Positions 2,881-10,467 of a DNA stretch of 10,467 nt are shown here, one piece after another. The notes under the pieces were generated by a model. It saw nothing but the letters and a program-made list of their open reading frames with translations. It had not been told where the DNA came from and made no database searches. A program made the translations under genes and the position numbers. Origin of the DNA: Escherichia coli. Its GTDB lineage: Bacteria; Pseudomonadota; Gammaproteobacteria; Enterobacterales; Enterobacteriaceae. The DNA lies in NCBI GenBank assembly GCA_025544715.1, contig GCA_025544715.1_4109.7; one strand, written 5' to 3'. Each line of letters begins with the position of its first letter. Positions within the stretch are counted from its first letter, which is position 1.

Positions 2881-3138
2881 TTAACCTTTTAAGTACTGGC
2901 TTAAGTAGTCTTGTTGATCTTCGGTGGTTGCCGCCATCTTCCCTAGTACTGGATTGATGATATAATCCTGATCCGCCTTATCAGTACTAGCAACCGGACG
3001 GATACGGGCCATTTCCTGGGCTTGTTCCACACTGTAACGCTCATAAAGGCGGCATTCTTCCGGTGTTAGCATTGCATCAATACGTTTCATTGGTTTAATG
3101 ATGCTTTCAACTTCATTGAGTACTTGATTAACGTTCAT
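2881..3138 (-). CDS. hypothetical protein (85 aa)
   Basis: ORF track; GGGGA SD 8 nt upstream of ATG 3138; no own cassette promoter, likely co-transcribed with 3190..3459; contains four AGTACT sites in three frames. Confidence 0.6.
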   Translation of the reverse strand: MNVNQVLNEVESIIKPMKRIDAMLTPEECRLYERYSVEQAQEMARIRPVASTDKADQDYIINPVLGKMAATTEDQQDYLSQYLKG

Positions 3139-3189
3139 GGTATAATCCCCAATATAAGCGGCCTAAATCAACCGCTAACGATGTTTTGA

Positions 3190-3459
3190 TTAATAGGTGT
3201 AGGGTTGACGCTCAAACAATGATTGCACGTTGTACGCCCCGCTAATGGGCTTCGCTGTCAAATCAATTTTATATTGTTCACGCTTAAAGATAATAAAACG
3301 ACAATTGTTCTTAACATCAAAATTGATTGAACGTTCCAGGAGTTTACCATCGTGCACAAATACAAGATAACCGCTCGCTACTTGTTTTGTAGTACTGGTT
3401 GCAACCATAGACCGACGAACATGTGTACCTGCATCGATTAAAGTACTGATATTTTTCAT
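3190..3459 (-). CDS. hypothetical protein (89 aa)
   Basis: ORF track; strong SD AAGAGGA 9 nt upstream of ATG 3459; preceded by a distinct stem-loop (3498-3526). Confidence 0.6.
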   Translation of the reverse strand: MKNISTLIDAGTHVRRSMVATSTTKQVASGYLVFVHDGKLLERSINFDVKNNCRFIIFKREQYKIDLTAKPISGAYNVQSLFERQPYTY

Positions 3460-4109: not shown

Positions 4110-4127
4110 TTTTAGTTTCCTCTTAGT

Positions 4128-4187
4128 GGGGAGAACCATTTCTCCCCTTGATGTAATGTATTATACTTTATCTGACTTACTTTGCAA
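4128..4187 (-). promoter_or_regulatory. promoter + 5' UTR stem-loop cassette
   Basis: TTGCAA 4182-4187, 16 nt, TATAAT 4160-4165; stem-loop GGGGAGAA/TTCTCCCC 4128-4147. Confidence 0.65.
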
Positions 4188-4194
4188 GTACTTT

Positions 4195-4422
4195 TTAGTT
4201 TAATTCATCCAGGCATAAGATACGATCTACGCCGAGATCCGTTAAGCTAATGGTTGGCACTTGATAGGTTTCAATGTATTCTACACTAGCCCACTGACCG
4301 AACTCATTCACCGCCCAGGTATTCATTGCAAAATGTAATTCCGCACCTTTCTTATTAGTAATTACAGCAACAGTAGAAGAAGTGCCAGTAGTACCAGTTA
4401 CATAAGCGATTACGATAGCCAT
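4195..4422 (-). CDS. hypothetical protein (75 aa)
   Basis: ORF track; SD AGGAAT; promoter -10 4456-4461, -35 4479-4484. Confidence 0.6.
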   Translation of the reverse strand: MAIVIAYVTGTTGTSSTVAVITNKKGAELHFAMNTWAVNEFGQWASVEYIETYQVPTISLTDLGVDRILCLDELN

Positions 4423-4839: not shown

Positions 4840-4871
4840 GGCGGTGCTAGTGGACTGGAATACTATAGACA

Positions 4872-4899
4872 CAAAAAAGCCCACTGTTTATAGTGGGCT
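4872..4899 (-). terminator. Rho-independent terminator
   Basis: minus strand AGCCCACT-ATAAAC-AGTGGGCT followed by UUUUUUGU; preceded by AGTACTGAATCA. Confidence 0.7.
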
Positions 4900-4920
4900 A
4901 GTGATTCAGTACTTTAATTG

Positions 4921-5554: not shown

Positions 5555-5608
5555 CTACTTTTTTAAAACTATTTTCAAAGTATTCTAGTACTACAATCCT
5601 ACAATAAC

Positions 5609-5635
5609 AAAAAAGCCCACTGCTTATAGTGGGCT
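5609..5635 (-). terminator. Rho-independent terminator (near-identical copy of the 4872-4899 module)
   Basis: AGCCCACT-ATAAGC-AGTGGGCT followed by UUUUUUGUUAUUG; preceded by AGTACTGAATCA. Confidence 0.7.
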
Positions 5636-5652
5636 AGTGATTCAGTACTAGA

Positions 5653-5952
5653 TTATAAACAGTTAATTACTCCTGTATGCGTTACTTTCTCCGTATCCAT
5701 GACAGTGACAGAACCACGTTTAGCACTGGCATCATAATAAATTGTTGTGCTACCTTTATCATCTTCTTCATGGAACGGGCCGTTTTTAAATGCTTCCGGC
5801 TGCAATTCCAGATCCTTTAAAACAATCTCGCCTGTACTTTCATTGGTCATTGCTACTGTGCACTGAATGAATTTATCACTACTCACATCTAACGATGCGT
5901 TAACAGCGAAAGAGGAAACAGATAAAGCCAGGGCGATGATTGCAATTTTCAT
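5653..5952 (-). CDS. predicted secreted/periplasmic protein with N-terminal signal peptide (99 aa, MKIAIIALALSVSSFAVNA|S...)
   Basis: ORF track; hydrophobic N-terminus with AxA-like cleavage motif; its promoter cassette lies across the N gap at 6127-6186; terminator 5609-5635 downstream. Confidence 0.6.
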   Translation of the reverse strand: MKIAIIALALSVSSFAVNASLDVSSDKFIQCTVAMTNESTGEIVLKDLELQPEAFKNGPFHEEDDKGSTTIYYDASAKRGSVTVMDTEKVTHTGVINCL

Positions 5953-6110
5953 TTGNNNNNNNNNNNNNNNNNNNNNNNNNNNNNNNNNNNNNNNNNNNNN
6001 NNNNNNNNNNNNNNNNNNNNNNNNNNNNNNNNNNNNNNNNNNNNNNNNNNNNNGTTAACAGCGAAAGAGGAAACAGATAAAGCCAGGGCGATGATTGCAA
6101 TTTTCATTTG
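5899..6110. repeat. exact 57-bp direct duplication flanking the N gap (5899-5955 = 6054-6110)
   Basis: identical strings GTTAACAGCGAAAGAGGAAACAGATAAAGCCAGGGCGATGATTGCAATTTTCATTTG on both sides; most likely overlapping contig ends, so the true sequence probably joins 5955 to 6111. Confidence 0.8.
5956..6053. other. 98-nt run of N (assembly or scaffold gap)
   Basis: unbroken N run; both flanks are an identical 57-bp sequence. Confidence 0.95.
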
Positions 6111-6191: not shown

Positions 6192-6428
6192 TTATGATTT
6201 TTTATAAAACATTTCAGCAGTGATATTTTTACCCGTTGGCTGTACTTTATCCAGAATTTTTTGATGCCCTGGAAGTCCAAATGAATATGATCCGTAAACC
6301 GTAAACCAGTAGTTACCCTCAGTGTTTACATGTACAGCACAATAGGGAACGCCCCGCGATTCATCACCAATAAAGTGTGATACCGTTCCCGTTACATTAG
6401 CAGACGTTGATTTGATTTGTTCAAGCAT
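6192..6428 (-). CDS. hypothetical protein (78 aa)
   Basis: ORF track; SD AAGGAAT; cassette with stem-loop 6449-6467, -10 6477-6482, -35 6499-6504. Confidence 0.6.
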   Translation of the reverse strand: MLEQIKSTSANVTGTVSHFIGDESRGVPYCAVHVNTEGNYWFTVYGSYSFGLPGHQKILDKVQPTGKNITAEMFYKKS

Positions 6429-6448
6429 TTTCTTATTCCTTAGTTACC

Positions 6449-6504
6449 AGGGGGAACCGCTCCCCCTATGCAAAACATTATACGCGTTTAAAAACTAATA
6501 GCAA
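6449..6504 (-). promoter_or_regulatory. promoter + 5' UTR stem-loop cassette
   Basis: TTGCTA 6499-6504, 16 nt, TATAAT 6477-6482; stem-loop AGGGGGA/TCCCCCT 6449-6467. Confidence 0.6.
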
Positions 6505-6537
6505 GTATTTTAATAAAAAGTATTTGAAAAATAATTG

Positions 6538-6566
6538 TTGACAACTGCATCCAGTACTGGCATAAT
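6538..6566 (+). promoter_or_regulatory. plus-strand sigma70-like promoter, divergent from the 6449-6504 cassette
   Basis: TTGACA 6538-6543, 17 nt spacer containing AGTACT, CATAAT 6561-6566; no plus-strand ORF downstream. Confidence 0.5.
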
Positions 6567-6572
6567 TACTAC

Positions 6573-6680
6573 ATAAAGACGAGATAGTCACTAACCCACC
6601 GGGTGCATAGATCCGTCTATTAAATGATTCAGTACTGAAAAAGTAACGGGGAGTTATTATCTCCCCGCGTTGTTATTTGG
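6573..6680 (+). ncRNA. candidate small non-coding RNA (~105 nt) of the conserved-element family
   Basis: own promoter 6538-6566, conserved element 6581-6618, palindrome TTCAGTACTGAA 6628-6639, terminator hairpin 6647-6667 with U tract; longest ATG ORF is 4 codons. Confidence 0.35.
6647..6680. terminator. bidirectional intrinsic terminator
   Basis: CGGGGAG-TTATTAT-CTCCCCG hairpin; U-rich on the plus side (GUUGUUAUUU) and on the minus side (UUACUUUUUC); ends both the plus small transcript and minus gene 6673..6894. Confidence 0.6.
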
Positions 6681-6894: not shown

Positions 6895-6913
6895 TGTATT
6901 TTCCTCATTACCA

Positions 6914-6972
6914 GGGAGAACCATTTCTCCCCTCTATGTAAACTATTATACAGTACTGGAAACTAATTGCAA
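6914..6972 (-). promoter_or_regulatory. promoter + 5' UTR stem-loop cassette
   Basis: TTGCAA 6967-6972, 16 nt, TATAAT 6945-6950; stem-loop GGGAGAA/TTCTCCC 6914-6931. Confidence 0.65.
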
Positions 6973-6980
6973 GTACTTTT

Positions 6981-7184
6981 TTAATTTAATTGCTTTAAAA
7001 CATACTCAAAGACACCACGCACATCATTGATCATCGCCTGGCGGTTAGCAGGTAACGCACCAAGATCGCCACTATCCCAGGCATTGATAAAACTCCCCAA
7101 ATCATGATAGATTTTATTCTGTAAGCCGATCAACTGTAATTCTTTTTCTTCAAGCTCTTTAATACGGTCGATTAAAAGACTCAT
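6981..7184 (-). CDS. hypothetical protein (67 aa; trimmed to MSLLIDRIKELEE...)
   Basis: ATG 7184 with SD GAGGA; 17 nt after the stop of 7202..7489; shares a 20-nt RBS/start module with that gene. Confidence 0.5.
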   Translation of the reverse strand: MSLLIDRIKELEEKELQLIGLQNKIYHDLGSFINAWDSGDLGALPANRQAMINDVRGVFEYVLKQLN

Positions 7185-7201
7185 TAGATAATCCTCAGTA
7201 C

Positions 7202-7489
7202 TTAATTGTAAGATCCGCAACGGTTACAATAGTGCCCGTCTTCCTCGTCATCGTCAACGAATTGACTAACGAAATTATCTACTTTCTCTTTGAGATTCTG
7301 ATAATTGTTTTCTACTTCCTTTAAACGTTCCTGGTAGTATTCCAGTGCTTGCACATACGCCGCCTCAGCCGTTTTAGCTCTTAAGGCTAAATTCATGCCA
7401 CGCGTTTCATCGTACATCCAAAAGCCATCGGTGCACTCACTGATTGACAATGATTTGGTTAACACTTTATAGTCAATTACTTTGCTCAT
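7202..7489 (-). CDS. hypothetical protein with C-terminal C-x2-C (95 aa; trimmed to MSKVIDYK...)
   Basis: ATG 7489 with SD GAGGA 9 nt upstream; the track start at 7528 lies inside the hairpin 7508-7526; no own promoter, likely co-transcribed with 7546..7785. Confidence 0.55.
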   Translation of the reverse strand: MSKVIDYKVLTKSLSISECTDGFWMYDETRGMNLALRAKTAEAAYVQALEYYQERLKEVENNYQNLKEKVDNFVSQFVDDDEEDGHYCNRCGSYN

Positions 7490-7507
7490 TAGATAATCCT
7501 CAGTAAA

Positions 7508-7526
7508 GGCGGGAACCACACCCGCC
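7508..7526 (-). terminator. intercistronic GC hairpin (attenuator or processing site?)
   Basis: GGCGGG-AACCACA-CCCGCC between stop at 7546 and ATG at 7489; followed by UUUACU on the minus strand; preceded by the 14-bp palindrome 7531-7544. Confidence 0.3.
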
Positions 7527-7530
7527 ATTG

Positions 7531-7545: not shown

Positions 7546-7785
7546 TTACATTCCAACCATTGCAGCACGGATCGCCGTAGTGCTATACTTGAATCCGTCC
7601 GGCGTTGTAGTAGTACCGTTGGCTTTTAATCTGCGGTACATACATTGGGCCGCAATATCTTTAGTTTTACATTGTGCGATGCAACTTTGAGCAAGCCGAT
7701 ATAATGACTCACCGTTATTAATCCACAATGAAACATTCCAATGAGTTTTGTTTTTGTGCCCGTTGTAAGTTTTAGTACTAGCCAT
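7546..7785 (-). CDS. hypothetical protein, paralog of 9143..9382 (79 aa)
   Basis: ORF track; SD GAGGA; cassette 7808-7869; shares GHKNKTHWNVSLWINN and an identical C-terminal 19 aa with 9143..9382. Confidence 0.65.
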   Translation of the reverse strand: MASTKTYNGHKNKTHWNVSLWINNGESLYRLAQSCIAQCKTKDIAAQCMYRRLKANGTTTTPDGFKYSTTAIRAAMVGM

Positions 7786-7807
7786 TTTTAAATCCTCGTT
7801 TGATTGA

Positions 7808-7869
7808 GCAGGGGAACCATTCCCCCGCCTCGATATAAAGTATTATACGCCGTTAAACTTAGTTTGCAA
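7808..7869 (-). promoter_or_regulatory. promoter + 5' UTR stem-loop cassette
   Basis: TTGCAA 7864-7869, 16 nt, TATAAT 7842-7847; stem-loop 7808-7828. Confidence 0.65.
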
Positions 7870-7882
7870 GTACTTTTTTAAA

Positions 7883-8494
7883 TTAATATTCGATTGATTC
7901 TACTACGCCATCAATCACATTGAATTGATATTCGTTACCCTCGATCAGTGCTACGATGTTTTCAGTAGTGAATTGATCCTCATATGCATTCTCTAAATCA
8001 CGGTACAACTTGCGTGACAATTCACGAATAGTATCAGTGAGTAGTTCCTCAAGCTCATTAACTAACGTTTCTTGTTTTGCGGTTAAATCAGTGTAAGCCG
8101 ATTCAATGTACCCGCTTACAGTATTCTCATGCGAGTAGCGAGAGTGAGAACGCTTTACACTCATTGCCAAATCATCTTCATTCAGCAGGTGACGGATTGA
8201 GCGATACTTAGTTAACGCCTTAACCTTGCGTAAAAACTTCACTGCGTCAACGTGGTCAGTACTGATTGATGCACCGTCACCTTGCGACCAAAAACCACTG
8301 AATTGCAATTCCGCGTCAGTAATACCATACTCCGGCAACAATGTTTCTTTATAGTATTCATATACGCCCTCAGAAAAGAAATCATCACCGCTTGAACGTT
8401 CCCGATCCCGAACCAGTTCGATAGCTGACGTTTGTTGTTCTGCGTTCAATTCAGAAAAAGCCATAACATAAGTAGTAGTAGTGATAGTTTTCAT
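7883..8494 (-). CDS. hypothetical acidic protein (203 aa), largest ORF in the window
   Basis: ORF track; SD GAGGG 9 nt upstream of ATG 8494; promoter -10 8527-8532, -35 8549-8554, with a second complete cassette further upstream. Confidence 0.7.
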   Translation of the reverse strand: MKTITTTTYVMAFSELNAEQQTSAIELVRDRERSSGDDFFSEGVYEYYKETLLPEYGITDAELQFSGFWSQGDGASISTDHVDAVKFLRKVKALTKYRSIRHLLNEDDLAMSVKRSHSRYSHENTVSGYIESAYTDLTAKQETLVNELEELLTDTIRELSRKLYRDLENAYEDQFTTENIVALIEGNEYQFNVIDGVVESIEY

Positions 8495-8526
8495 TTTGTA
8501 ACCCTCATTCAGTAGTTGATGTAAGT

Positions 8527-8554
8527 ATTATACGCTTTTAAAAACAATTGTCAA
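8527..8554 (-). promoter_or_regulatory. sigma70-like early promoter, no stem-loop
   Basis: TTGACA 8549-8554, 16 nt, TATAAT 8527-8532. Confidence 0.55.
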
Positions 8555-8603
8555 ACTATTTTATCAGGGGAGTTTTTCGTAAGTCTTACTCCTGGACTAC
8601 TTA

Positions 8604-8671
8604 ACGGGGAGTTACTTATTCATTCCCCGTCCTGATGTAAAACATTATACGCCTTTAAACATAGTTTGCAA
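8604..8671 (-). promoter_or_regulatory. orphan promoter + stem-loop cassette with no ORF of its own (tandem with 8527-8554)
   Basis: TTGCAA 8666-8671, 16 nt, TATAAT 8644-8649; stem-loop ACGGGGA/TCCCCGT 8604-8630; the next ATG-initiated ORF is only 5 codons. Confidence 0.5.
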
Positions 8672-8708
8672 GTACTTTTTAAAAAATAGTTTTAATCACT
8701 TTTATATA

Positions 8709-8752
8709 GATACACTCCCGCACCCTATGGGCTATCGCCTTGTGTCCGGCTT
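8709..8752 (-). ncRNA. conserved element copy 4 (candidate small RNA or 5' leader)
   Basis: minus-sense ..GATAGCCCATAGGGTGCGGGAGTGTATCT behind promoter 8759-8787. Confidence 0.25.
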
Positions 8753-8758
8753 GTAAGT

Positions 8759-8787
8759 ATTATCTCACTAAGCCGGATAATGGTCAA
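8759..8787 (-). promoter_or_regulatory. sigma70-like promoter driving conserved element copy 4
   Basis: minus strand TTGACC (8782-8787), 17 nt, GATAAT (8759-8764). Confidence 0.35.
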
Positions 8788-8793
8788 GTACTT

Positions 8794-9060
8794 TTATTCA
8801 AGTACTGCAATCTTTTTAGTACTGTACACAGTAACACGGTTGCCCTTGCGGTCGTGCTTTATTTCTACCACGCGACGCGATACACTATCAGGACGCTTTA
8901 AAGCAGATAGCCAGTACTGAATAGATCGGGCTGTACTTCTCTTTACTACGGCCCAACGTTTACCACGTTCCGATTGTACGCCCATATCTTTAAACGTCGC
9001 CCCGTCCTGGCGTGCTGCAATCCGAGCAAGTTCACGCGTAGCAAAGTAAGTAATATTCAT
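8794..9060 (-). CDS. hypothetical basic protein (88 aa; trimmed to MNITYFATRELARIAARQ...)
   Basis: ATG 9060 with GGGG SD-like 9 nt upstream; the track start at 9114 lies upstream of the -10 (9097-9102). Confidence 0.5.
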   Translation of the reverse strand: MNITYFATRELARIAARQDGATFKDMGVQSERGKRWAVVKRSTARSIQYWLSALKRPDSVSRRVVEIKHDRKGNRVTVYSTKKIAVLE

Positions 9061-9096
9061 GCTGATACCCCTATCGTTGTTGTATAAAAGAAATCT

Positions 9097-9121
9097 ATTA
9101 TAAAGTACTATCACCGTGCAA
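9097..9121 (-). promoter_or_regulatory. degenerate cassette promoter (spacer only 13 nt)
   Basis: TATAAT 9097-9102 and TTGCAC 9116-9121 are too close for a canonical sigma70 promoter; looks like a cassette with ~3 nt deleted from the spacer. Confidence 0.25.
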
Positions 9122-9142
9122 TAGTACTTTTAATCTATTCTC

Positions 9143-9382
9143 TTACATTCCAACCATTGCAGCACGGATCGCCGTAGTACTATACTTGAATCCGTCCGGT
9201 GTTTTATCTTGTCCAGTCTGTTCTAAAAATAGCATCATATGACGGGCCGCATCATTGCGATTAGTGTTAGCGGCAATAAAGTCCAGGGCCAACCGATATA
9301 ATGATTCATCATTATTAATCCAAAGGCTTACATTCCAATGAGTTTTATTTTTGTGACCTAAGAACATTTTTGATTTAGCCAT
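9143..9382 (-). CDS. hypothetical protein, paralog of 7546..7785 (79 aa)
   Basis: ORF track; SD GAGGA 9 nt upstream of ATG 9382; cassette 9406-9462; near-identical nucleotide sequence to 7546..7785 at both ends. Confidence 0.65.
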   Translation of the reverse strand: MAKSKMFLGHKNKTHWNVSLWINNDESLYRLALDFIAANTNRNDAARHMMLFLEQTGQDKTPDGFKYSTTAIRAAMVGM

Positions 9383-9405
9383 TTTAAAATCCTCTGAATT
9401 ATGGC

Positions 9406-9462
9406 GGGGAACTATTCCCCACCTGATAGAAAGTATTATACATTAATCGAATTACTTTGCAA
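9406..9462 (-). promoter_or_regulatory. promoter + 5' UTR stem-loop cassette
   Basis: TTGCAA 9457-9462, 16 nt, TATAAT 9435-9440; stem-loop GGGGAA/TTCCCC 9406-9420. Confidence 0.65.
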
Positions 9463-9465
9463 GTA

Positions 9466-9657
9466 CTATTTTTTGCAATATTCGTAAATCTCTTTATATC
9501 CGCTTAGTACTACATCGCCCCGCTGCAATGTGATAGATTCGAAATCATCATGATTAACAGCGTTTAACCAGTTTAAAGCCTTCATCTTATTTGGGTATTT
9601 TTGTTCGTGCTGGTTTTCCCCATCAATCAACCAGTACTGTATAATTATCTCACGCAT
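9466..9657 (-). CDS. hypothetical protein (63 aa)
   Basis: ORF track; AAGGG SD; 11 nt after the stop of 9669..10031 (operon partner); stop TAG just upstream of the next cassette -35. Confidence 0.55.
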   Translation of the reverse strand: MREIIIQYWLIDGENQHEQKYPNKMKALNWLNAVNHDDFESITLQRGDVVLSGYKEIYEYCKK

Positions 9658-10114: not shown

Positions 10115-10348
10115 GTACTTTCTACAAATACTTTTAAAATAGTTTTCTTTCTATATAGGAGTACTATCATCCAGTACTGAATCAATCAAGGGAGTACAAT
10201 TATTCAGTACTATACCGTAAAACGGCCTCAGTCGCTTTCTAACGCATTAATACACCTAAGCTATACATTTGCACCACTCCCAACAATCCAGGGCGTTACA
10301 GGCCGTTTAAACGCGTTAAATTATTTTCAATTATTTTGTTTTTAGCTA

Positions 10349-10376
10349 TTGACTCAGTACAGAAAAAGCGTATAAT
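10349..10376 (+). promoter_or_regulatory. plus-strand sigma70-like promoter driving conserved element copy 3
   Basis: TTGACT 10349-10354, 16 nt, TATAAT 10371-10376; transcript start ATTACTACATAGACG.. matches that of the 6538-6566 promoter. Confidence 0.5.
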
Positions 10377-10382
10377 TACTAC

Positions 10383-10428
10383 ATAGACGCGAGAAAGCGG
10401 ATACCCCAGGGGGTGCCGAGATCCGTCC
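10383..10428 (+). ncRNA. candidate small RNA, conserved element copy 3 (3' end undefined)
   Basis: own promoter 10349-10376; element GAGAAAGCGGATACCCCAGGGGGTGCCGAGATCCGTCC 10391-10428 alignable with 6581-6618. Confidence 0.3.
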
Positions 10429-10467
10429 AAAATTCATAAAATTTAAAAAGGATACACTCCCGCACCT

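Follow-up and report, generated by a model that had tools for sequence, protein, structure and literature searches.

The locus and its gene pair

The window considered here, meaning the whole 10.5 kb stretch of DNA that was analysed, is by its 87–91% identity to Asteriusvirus genomes evidently that of a 121Q/PBECO4-like jumbo coliphage of this genus, and carries two genes, hereafter A and B, of 240 nt each, separated by 1.6 kb and read in the same direction (Table 1). In relatives with mapped genome ends, a direct terminal repeat (DTR) of ~21 kb encloses the early region that holds both genes: in vB_Ec-M-J the A/B region falls within a terminal repeat annotated at 21.5 kb, and fEgEco12 has a DTR of 20,993 bp (PMC13070987). 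NCBIfam gave no match for A, B or either intervening gene, and neither an Rfam family nor a tRNA was detected in the window.

Table 1. Features of the A/B locus, with positions counted from the first nucleotide of the window.
Feature	Position	Strand	Description	Basis
Paralog A, intact DUF7249 gene	7546..7785	−	79 aa; accessory allele class; centre QSCIAQCKTKDIAAQCMYRRLKANGTT; net charge ~+8	ORF list
Paralog B, intact DUF7249 gene	9143..9382	−	79 aa; resident allele class; centre DFIAANTNRNDAARHMMLFLEQTGQD; net charge ~+3	ORF list
A 3' segment	7546..7605	−	codons 61–79 and stop; TPDGFKYSTTAIRAAMVGM	58/60 identical to B
B 3' segment	9143..9202	−	counterpart of A 7546–7605	alignment, population comparison
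A variable centre	7606..7689	−	codons 33–60; from the latter half of helix 2 through the loop to helix 3	49/84 nt differ from B
B variable centre	9203..9286	−		49 nt from A
A N motif	7690..7761	−	codons 9–32; GHKNKTHWNVSLWINNGESLYRLA	dN/dS vs B
B N motif	9287..9358	−		alignment, dN/dS, population data
203-aa gene between A and B	7883..8494	−	phrog_5162; function unassigned	ORF list, PHROG
87-aa gene between A and B	8794..9057	−	phrog_8127; read from ATG	ORF list, PHROG
108-aa gene downstream of A	7202..7528	−	phrog_19040; weak DUF1033	ORF list, Pfam, PHROG
A cassette, sigma-70-like promoter	7842..7869	−	TTGCAA-16-TATAAT	pattern search
A cassette, stem-loop	7808..7829	−	GC-rich, between promoter and RBS; GGCGGGGGAATGGTTCCCCTGC	folding (−16.5 kcal/mol); repeat families D2/D4
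B cassette, sigma-70-like promoter	9435..9462	−	TTGCAA-16-TATAAT	pattern search
B cassette, stem-loop	9403..9423	−	GC-rich, between promoter and RBS	folding (−16.0 kcal/mol); repeat family D2

The initial annotation had read A and B as a paralog pair with mosaic nucleotide identity, and the open reading frame list and alignment confirm the pair in its coordinates, shared minus strand and 79-aa products. The proteins share 52 of 79 residues and the genes, aligned without gaps, 165 of 240 nucleotides (68.75%), with the likeness ending at the start and stop codons and flanks that are ~30% identical. Divergence is not uniform along the pair: identity reaches 97% in the last 60 nt (58/60, in exact runs of 36 and 20 nt, the longer at the 3' end), 81% across nt 25–93 (56/69, longest exact run 17 nt) and 43% across nt 94–180 (37/87), and an independent repeat finder recovered the same two blocks of likeness (D7 and D8). 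The diverged centre that had been described is thus real, as are the identical C-terminus (T61–M79 is the same in both proteins) and the single G/D replacement, G25D being the sole change across G9–A32. The accompanying claim that both ends are almost identical at the DNA level holds for the 3' part and overstates the 5' part.

Conservation across the DUF7249 family

Against Pfam PF23907 (DUF7249), which has a curated gathering cutoff of 27 bits, A reaches 52.2 bits and B 42.1, and the phrog_871 profile matches residues 1–79 of each (E = 8e-30 for A and 3e-29 for B); with scores above the cutoff and E values of about 1e-29, their homology is not due to chance. The family comprises early phage proteins of ~76 aa, for which 362 phage records were found. 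A search for further members showed it to be abundant, with about 2,255 cluster representatives (50% identity clusters) at E ≤ 1e-3. DUF7249 genes are located in early regions, one of them adjoining a SAM lyase gene. A literature search found no mention of DUF7249, and in ten longer members examined against Pfam it is the sole domain, giving no fusion clue to function.

A profile of 80 diverse DUF7249 sequences, with identity down to 53%, contains 16 invariant and 17 nearly invariant residues, of which 30 fall within residues 9–32 and 61–79, the exceptions being A45, A46 and L53. All 16 invariant residues (G9, W16, N17, S19, L20, W21, N23, N24, L28, T61, P62, D63, Y67, I72, A74 and A75) are found in both A and B. 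The suggestion of a conserved scaffold is therefore well founded: G9–A32 and T61–M79 are nearly invariant throughout these 80 members, and the centre is variable. Because the terminal motifs are so conserved family-wide, most of the A/B mosaic can be put down to ordinary purifying selection. Both proteins align end to end with the family and differ from it in no structural respect; what sets them apart is the presence of two copies per genome and the mosaic exchange.

Synonymous divergence and recombination in the ends

The segments of the pair differ greatly at synonymous sites. The N motif has pS 0.62, dS 1.34 and dN 0.10, the centre dS 2.27 and dN 0.99, and the C motif pS 0.15, dS 0.17 and dN 0. 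For the 5' motif, purifying selection alone suffices to explain the likeness, since its synonymous sites are near saturation, and a dS of 1.34 gives no sign of recent conversion there. At codons for identical residues, 12 of 27 had changed outside the C motif as against 2 of 17 inside it, a single-pair test of the 3' end that is marginal (Fisher p = 0.044). Family-wide constraint on the 3' end at the nucleotide level was rejected as a cause: among 83 unique family sequences, codons for identical residues differ at a rate of 0.61 in the C motif and 0.58 in the N motif. Given a dS of 0.17, compared with 1.3–2.3 elsewhere, and no codon constraint across the family, the 3' 60 nt appear to require recombination.

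Further evidence comes from relatives, sampled non-exhaustively from BLAST lists as 14 Asteriusvirus loci (the window and 13 others) and six others; the population set consists of 22 unique A/B sequences from the window, the 13 other Asteriusvirus loci and one Phapecoctavirus. Fixed differences between A and B number 43, with 41 of them within nt 91–179, 39 in codons 33–60 and none within nt 181–240. Shared polymorphisms number 13, all within nt 27–84 and 183–225 and six of them in the 3' segment, so that fixed and shared sites are distributed very differently between centre and ends (Fisher p = 5.6e-11). A linked block of five sites at nt 54–60 (TCATTG / TCCTTA / AGCCTT) occurs in both the A and B classes, and the PHI test detects recombination in the set (p ≤ 0.0005). 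Some of the shared third-position polymorphisms could be parallel mutations, and a GENECONV-type test would need longer runs of shared sites than these.

The segments also disagree in their relationships. In the centre, B groups with Phapecoctavirus alleles: its distance is 9–14 nt to L003, L131 and L132 (9 nt for L003), as compared with 49 nt to A. The 3' 60 nt place A with B, two nucleotides apart, and here the Phapecoctavirus B-like alleles differ from B at 8–9 positions (L003 at 9; incongruence p = 3.5e-5). B orthologues vary more at synonymous sites of the ends than at those of the centre (pS 0.52 and 0.06 between the window and 121Q). Chimeric genes are known, and the crossover of the L128 chimera lies within an invariant 26-nt run of the N motif. 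In Phapecoctavirus 10C3_SA_NWU, nt 1–27 are B-type and nt 28–240 are identical to A of vB_Ec-M-J, within Phapecoctavirus-like flanks, and phAPEC8_ev052 has a B-like centre under an A-like head. The proposal of gene conversion or recombination therefore stands for the ends at the level of the population, on shared polymorphisms, the PHI test, chimeras and incongruent segments. Of recent conversion there is no sign in the 5' motif, with its dS of 1.34, and at the 3' end of this genome it is suggested by two differences as against 4–6 in nine other genomes.

A and B differ on average at 4.70 positions of the 3' segment within genomes and 4.66 between them, and at 11.9 and 11.6 positions of the N motif; no sign of intragenomic concerted evolution was found in any segment, within- and between-genome distances being equal, and its classical form is therefore not demonstrated. 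Most exchange may take place between phages that infect the same cell. The locus resembles interlocus gene conversion between duplicated genes, as modelled for small multigene families, in its shared polymorphisms in the ends, a 3' tract free of fixed differences, with these falling in another part of the gene, and incongruent segment trees; synonymous divergence is reduced in the 3' motif though not in the 5' one. It departs from that model in that copies from the same genome are no closer than copies from different genomes, and in a donor pool that includes single-copy alleles of other phage genera. Since distances are equal and donors cross genera, recombination within a shared allele pool fits better than strict intragenomic conversion.

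Weighing the explanations

The account that we consider probable takes A and B as two old allele classes within DUF7249, with a mosaic that arises from purifying selection combined with homologous recombination in the ends. Each gene would sit in its own cassette of promoter, stem-loop and RBS within the hyperplastic early region of an Asteriusvirus. Very strong purifying selection acts on G9–A32 and T61–M79 and leaves codons 33–60 loosely constrained; by itself this yields conserved ends and a divergent centre at the protein level, and it accounts for a 5' part that is 81% identical in DNA. The family profile demonstrates this layer of the mosaic. The conserved coding ends in turn serve as substrates for recombination or gene conversion, in which A and B exchange with each other as well as with alleles of other coliphage genera, and homologous recombination in the ends is established at the population level. 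Its consequences are that heads, centres and tails occur in varied combinations, that A and B have become homogenised over their 3' 60 nt within the Asteriusvirus lineage, and that the centres stay as two clonal and deeply diverged haplotype classes. The recombination involved is ordinary phage mosaicism.

Purifying selection on its own, with the mosaic simply the conservation profile of the family and no A–B recombination or conversion, would account for a pattern that matches that profile exactly, for saturated synonymous divergence in the N motif and for A–B distances that are equal within and between genomes. We nonetheless regard it as quite unlikely, given the low dS of a C motif whose synonymous sites vary freely across the family, the confinement of all 13 shared polymorphisms, including the linked five-site block, to the ends, the PHI result and the head/centre chimeras, and the conflicting relationships of centre and 3' segment. 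A recent conversion in this very genome, carrying ~30–57 nt of the 3' end from A onto B or the reverse, is possible yet doubtful. Nine other genomes have 4–6 differences in the last 60 nt where this one has two, the B copy of the window lacks A198, T210, G222 and G225, which are typical of B, and has the A state at all four, and there is the exact 36-nt run at the 3' end; against this, random A/B pairs taken from different genomes get down to a single difference, the shared consecutive informative sites number just 4 and 3, too few for significance, and the B copies of UB and G17 also lack G222 and G225 in phages that have no A.

The spacing of 1.6 kb, equal length and common orientation might recall a tandem duplication that this phage underwent recently, after which the centre diverged fast. 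This candidate was rejected on its excessive synonymous divergence (dS 2.27 in the centre, 1.34 in the N motif), and flanks that are dissimilar except for generic promoter units, a B centre far nearer to Phapecoctavirus alleles than to A and an A slot that is empty or otherwise filled in relatives leave it hardly credible; we infer that A did not arise by recent duplication in place. Very unlikely, too, is the view that the centre is a specificity module on a conserved scaffold, under diversifying selection or targeted hypermutation of the arms-race or DGR kind, as the initial annotation had partly proposed with its diversifying central segment. The region from the second half of helix 2 to helix 3 is indeed variable family-wide, most genomes keep two divergent copies, and their centres differ strongly in charge (5 K+R and 1 D+E in A; 3 K+R and 4 D+E in B). 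However, omega is 0.05–0.47 among B-like alleles (a lone pair at 1.17 reflects an imported patch), A-type centres have pN 0.025 against pS 0.128, and centres are clonal inside each type. Centre mismatches have none of the adenine bias that marks DGRs and involve all four bases (A 21, C 12, G 8 and T 8 in copy A; A 15, T 13, C 11 and G 10 in copy B), and the 10.5 kb window has no reverse transcriptase gene, its longest open reading frame being 203 aa. Positive selection and DGR-type hypermutation in the centre were rejected on omega, pN/pS and this mismatch spectrum.

Accessory cassettes and wider meaning

Among 13 Asteriusvirus loci sampled, B is present in all and A in 10. UB has nothing in the A slot, G17 has a different gene there, Turkey5 has two cassettes and 121Q a homologue of the window's open reading frame at 6192–6428. 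A search with a 17-nt promoter spacer found no match, the actual spacer being 16 nt. The window holds 8 cassette units under strict criteria and at least 13 under looser ones, with stem-loops of −11.7 to −16.5 kcal/mol. On the sequences of the junctions, A is probably an accessory cassette whose gain, loss or replacement proceeds by exchange between the repeated promoter/stem-loop units.

Such units recall the promoter-early stem-loop (PeSL) cassettes of T4-type phages (Arbiol et al. 2010, PMC2839356), defined there as repeated units of an AT-rich tract, a sigma-70-like promoter, a stable GC stem-loop, an SD sequence and a start codon, and the modular shuffling described in those phages (Arbiol et al. 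2010, PMC2839356; Comeau et al. 2014, PMC4122927). The units in the window have an AT-rich tract, predicted sigma-70 promoter, GC stem-loop, SD and start codon, lie upstream of small ORFan genes within a hyperplastic early region, and border the indels and replacements of the A slot among relatives. They differ in belonging to Asteriusvirus and Stephanstirmvirinae rather than Tevenvirinae, and part of the A/B exchange lies inside coding sequence, in conserved motifs, not in regulatory units. In Asteriusvirus and Stephanstirmvirinae, too, PeSL-like cassettes appear to give the early terminal-repeat region its organisation. The upstream edge of the slot is the 3' end of the 203-aa gene, and the downstream edge is the 108-aa gene, which starts 17 nt past the stop codon of A and has no promoter of its own.

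The overall importance of the locus is limited to that of a small, clean and quantified example. It illustrates that mosaic nucleotide identity between paralogs can stem mostly from the conservation profile of their family, with the 3' 60 nt alone here apparently requiring recombination. Conserved motif-coding stretches down to ~26 nt can also act as crossover points between phage genera, a 213-nt tract being identical in an Asteriusvirus and a Phapecoctavirus.

Predicted fold and candidate function

AlphaFold2 (AF2) models gave a confident four-helix fold for both copies (pLDDT 87.2 for A and 89.8 for B), with identical predicted helices at 13–24, 26–38, 42–55 and 69–75. On these models the DUF7249 protein would be a compact four-helix early protein, possibly HTH-like, and small helix-turn-helix or winged-helix DNA-binding domains (the GyrA/ParC winged helix, Myb/SANT and transposase HTH) are among its nearest systems. 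A role in host takeover or anti-defence, exerted through the invariant polar surface of the terminal motifs, is faintly suggested. It is conceivable, if unlikely, that the invariant ends act as homology arms by which coliphage genera (Asteriusvirus, Phapecoctavirus and others) swap the variable helix-2/helix-3 module of an early takeover or anti-defence protein, and that keeping two divergent modules per genome, the basic A and near-neutral B, lets the phage deal with more host targets or variants of defence. As an abundant family with ~30 strongly conserved residues and an early-region location, DUF7249 is a reasonable candidate for functional study. A sequence-profile search of the PDB gave no match, and Foldseek returned nothing at E ≤ 0.001 against PDB and BFVD; the best BFVD match was an uncharacterised cyanophage protein that is probably itself a DUF7249 member.

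Identity and selection along the gene pair

Paralogs A and B (Table) are a genuine DUF7249 gene pair, and two ordinary processes together account for their mosaic identity. Purifying selection acts very strongly on two terminal motifs throughout the family, and homologous recombination in those conserved stretches shuffles gene segments among paralogs and coliphage genera and has homogenised the final 60 nt of the two copies in Asteriusvirus. The pair adds a new, well-documented example of processes already known, with no new kind of element. The ORF list, alignment and repeat finder bear out the coordinates, 79-aa length and paralogy given in the initial annotation, the repeat finder independently recovering both blocks as its families D7 and D8. 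The proteins share 52 of 79 residues, and ungapped DNA identity (68.75% overall) is unevenly distributed. Both end blocks had been called almost identical: this is true of the 3'-terminal 60 nt (58/60, with exact runs of 36 and 20 nt), but overstates nt 25-93, where 56 of 69 positions agree (81%). The centre has indeed diverged (37/87 or 43% at nt 94-180), and likeness stops at the start and stop codons.

Table. Features of the window and of related loci, with A versus B divergence by segment
Feature	Position	Strand	Details
Paralog A	7546-7785	(-)	240 nt / 79 aa
Paralog B	9143-9382	(-)	240 nt / 79 aa
N motif (G9-A32), A vs B	codons 9-32		pS 0.62, dS 1.34, dN 0.10
Centre, A vs B	codons 33-60		pS 0.71, dS 2.27, dN 0.99
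C motif (T61-M79), A vs B	codons 61-79		pS 0.15, dS 0.17, dN 0
203-aa gene	7883-8494	(-)	bounds A slot
108-aa gene	7202-7528	(-)	bounds A slot
ORF after 108-aa gene	6981-7220	(-)
78-aa ORF	6192-6428	(-)
Regulatory units, examples	1084-1144, 2405-2465, 4127-4196, 6912-6981, 7809-7878, 8611-8680, 9402-9471		before minus-strand genes
A slot, UB			empty
A slot, G17			different 267-nt gene
A slot, 121Q (L122)	2073-2309		gene 272, homologue of 78-aa ORF
A slot, Turkey5			267-nt gene (as G17) + A
Chimeric gene, vB_EcoM_10C3_SA_NWU (L128)	3001-3240
DUF7249 gene, PGT2 (L135)	2123-2362
Second ORF, IMG/VR contig L059	2122-2286
Second ORF, IMG/VR contig L065	1914-2087
Run of 98 N	5956-6053
57-nt exact duplicates	5899-5955, 6054-6110
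Signal-peptide-like ORF	5653-5952	(-)	MKIAIIALALSVSSFAVN
56-nt direct repeat	6562-6617, 10372-10427		77% identity
Long intergenic stretches	6429-6672, 10143-10467
60-nt repeat	4854-4913, 5590-5649		87% identity

In an alignment of 80 DUF7249 members, with identity to the query down to 53%, 16 residues never vary and a further 17 are nearly invariant. As 30 of these 33 fall in the two terminal motifs, the amino-acid mosaic of A and B is the family's own conservation profile, and the proposed conserved scaffold is upheld; the remaining three (A45, A46, L53) probably make core contacts in helix 3. Nei-Gojobori estimates per segment, which separate selection from shared ancestry, show uneven divergence (Table). 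Because synonymous sites in the N motif are near saturation, protein constraint wholly explains the 5' similarity. In the C motif, codons for shared residues differ in 2 of 17 cases versus 12 of 27 elsewhere (p=0.044); a family-wide codon or RNA constraint as the cause of the 3' identity is ruled out by the corresponding rates among 83 unique family sequences (0.61 in the C motif, 0.58 in the N motif).

Recombination and rival readings

The gene was sampled from the window, 13 other Asteriusvirus loci, and Phapecoctavirus, Justusliebigvirus, Vequintavirus and IMG/VR relatives. The 22 unique A- and B-type sequences show 43 fixed differences, of which 41 map to nt 91-179 and not one to nt 181-240; the 13 polymorphisms common to both classes all fall within nt 27-84 and 183-225 (Fisher p=5.6e-11). 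One of them, a linked block spanning nt 54-60 (TCATTG / TCCTTA / AGCCTT), occurs in both classes and cannot be produced by parallel point mutation; the PHI (pairwise-homoplasy) permutation test gives p<=0.0005. Segments also conflict (p=3.5e-5): in the centre B differs from the Phapecoctavirus-like allele L003 by 9 nt and from A by 49 nt, and in the 3' 60 nt it differs from L003 by 9 nt and from A by 2 nt. Synonymous diversity among B orthologues is higher in the ends than in the centre (window vs 121Q: pS 0.52 vs 0.06), as expected if patches were imported into the ends and the centres were clonal.

Chimeras are found between genera. The Phapecoctavirus vB_EcoM_10C3_SA_NWU gene has a B-type head (nt 1-27) and from nt 28 to nt 240 matches the A copy of Asteriusvirus vB_Ec-M-J exactly, with likeness to the window restricted to the gene and Phapecoctavirus-like flanks unrelated to Asteriusvirus. 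Its 5' crossover lies within a 26-nt run (nt 28-53) almost invariant among sampled coliphage alleles, and the chimera points to gene transfer across phage genera in the very recent past. An A-like head (ITKTYN) is joined to a B-like centre in phAPEC8_ev052 and KKP 3954.

The gene conversion first proposed thus stands, at population level, as recombination in the ends, through end-confined shared polymorphisms, the PHI result and chimeras, but not as recent conversion of the 5' motif in this pair, nor as concerted evolution within genomes. Within- and between-genome differences are 4.70 and 4.66 in the 3' motif and 11.9 and 11.6 in the N motif; sharing a genome makes two copies no more similar than coming from different ones, so classical concerted evolution is not demonstrated, and exchange between co-infecting phages accounts for these distances equally well. 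The window's own 3' pair may nevertheless be the product of recent local conversion: it has 2 differences versus 4-6 in nine other genomes, and at four sites its B copy has the nucleotide of A, unlike most B copies, although random between-genome pairs get down to 1 difference in this segment and the runs of informative sites are not long enough for testing. The saturated synonymous divergence, together with the cassette context of A, rules out a recent tandem duplication. The suggestion of a diversifying centre fails: omega is 0.05-0.47 among B-like alleles, A-type centres have pN 0.025 against pS 0.128, and no DGR signature was seen in the A/B centre mismatches, which involve all four bases; the lack of any window ORF above 203 aa also counts against a DGR.

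Genomic setting and cassettes

The window holds only small genes, all on the minus strand, and is 87-91% identical to Asteriusvirus jumbo coliphages (among them 121Q, PBECO4, G17 and Turkey5). In vB_Ec-M-J the homologous region sits within an annotated 21.5 kb direct terminal repeat; that of fEgEco12, confirmed by restriction mapping, is 20,993 bp (PMC13070987). A and B are each preceded by a putative TTGCAA-16-TATAAT promoter, a GC-rich stem-loop and a GAGG ribosome-binding site before the ATG. At least 13 such units of 60-95 nt (repeat families D1-D6), comprising an AT-rich tract, a TTGCAA/TTGACA-16-TATAAT promoter-like site and a GC stem-loop, precede nearly every small gene. They resemble the PeSL (promoter-early stem-loop) cassettes of T4-type phages, and the design recurs around the Phapecoctavirus homologue, with units in Phapecoctavirus loci L128, L002 and L003.

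The contents of the A slot differ among relatives (Table), with stem-loop/promoter units at its junctions, and B is found in 13/13 loci examined; this makes A an accessory cassette and B the resident copy. Gene 272 of 121Q exemplifies a cassette, here that of the window's 78-aa ORF, which a close relative carries in another place. The 108-aa gene, whose product matches DUF1033 weakly and below threshold, lacks its own promoter, starts 17 nt past the A stop and shares 19 nt with the next ORF, so A and these two genes are probably co-transcribed from the putative A promoter.

Family and predicted fold

A and B belong over their whole length to Pfam DUF7249 (52 and 42 bits; cutoff 27) and to phrog_871. 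The family is large: the suggested search for further members found tblastn matches in 362 phage records, including single-copy genes of Stephanstirmvirinae and Vequintavirinae coliphages, podophage-size genomes (~40-45 kb) of Ralstonia, Aeromonas and Enterobacter, and T4-like cyanophages, and profile matches (E<=1e-3) to 2,255 representatives at 50% identity clustering. NCBIfam and PDB sequence searches gave no match for A or B, ten longer members carry no Pfam domain besides DUF7249, and the literature searched does not mention the family. On IMG/VR contigs L059 and L065 a second, highly divergent DUF7249-like ORF lies ~400 nt downstream of the canonical copy, retaining TPDG..(F/Y)S without the GHKN..WNVSLW N motif; paralog pairs thus exist in other phage lineages too.

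AlphaFold2 gives one and the same confident model for both proteins (mean pLDDT 89.8 for B, 87.2 for A), with predicted helices at 13-24, 26-38, 42-55 and 69-75 and a short hairpin at 60-66; by Foldseek (E<=0.001) the predicted fold appears to have no significant relative in PDB or BFVD. In the 42.7 kb Escherichia podophage PGT2 the DUF7249 gene is third from the left end, with a SAM (S-adenosylmethionine) lyase gene two genes downstream: the neighbourhood is early and anti-restriction, and the position is compatible with, without proving, an early host-takeover or anti-defence role. For this small, basic, helical, early protein we infer as possible a DNA-binding or anti-defence role.

Other repeats in the window

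The run of 98 N between 57-nt duplicates looks like a scaffold gap or assembly artefact; it duplicates the 5' end of the signal-peptide-like ORF. Rfam and tRNA scans gave no match. The 56-nt direct repeat, not among the promoter units, has its copies in unusually long intergenic stretches, with a plus-strand TTGACA-17-CATAAT site immediately upstream of the first, where a small plus-strand transcript is conceivable. The 60-nt repeat, containing the hairpin AAAAAAGCCCACTG..TAGTGGGCT, is a twice-used terminator-like unit.
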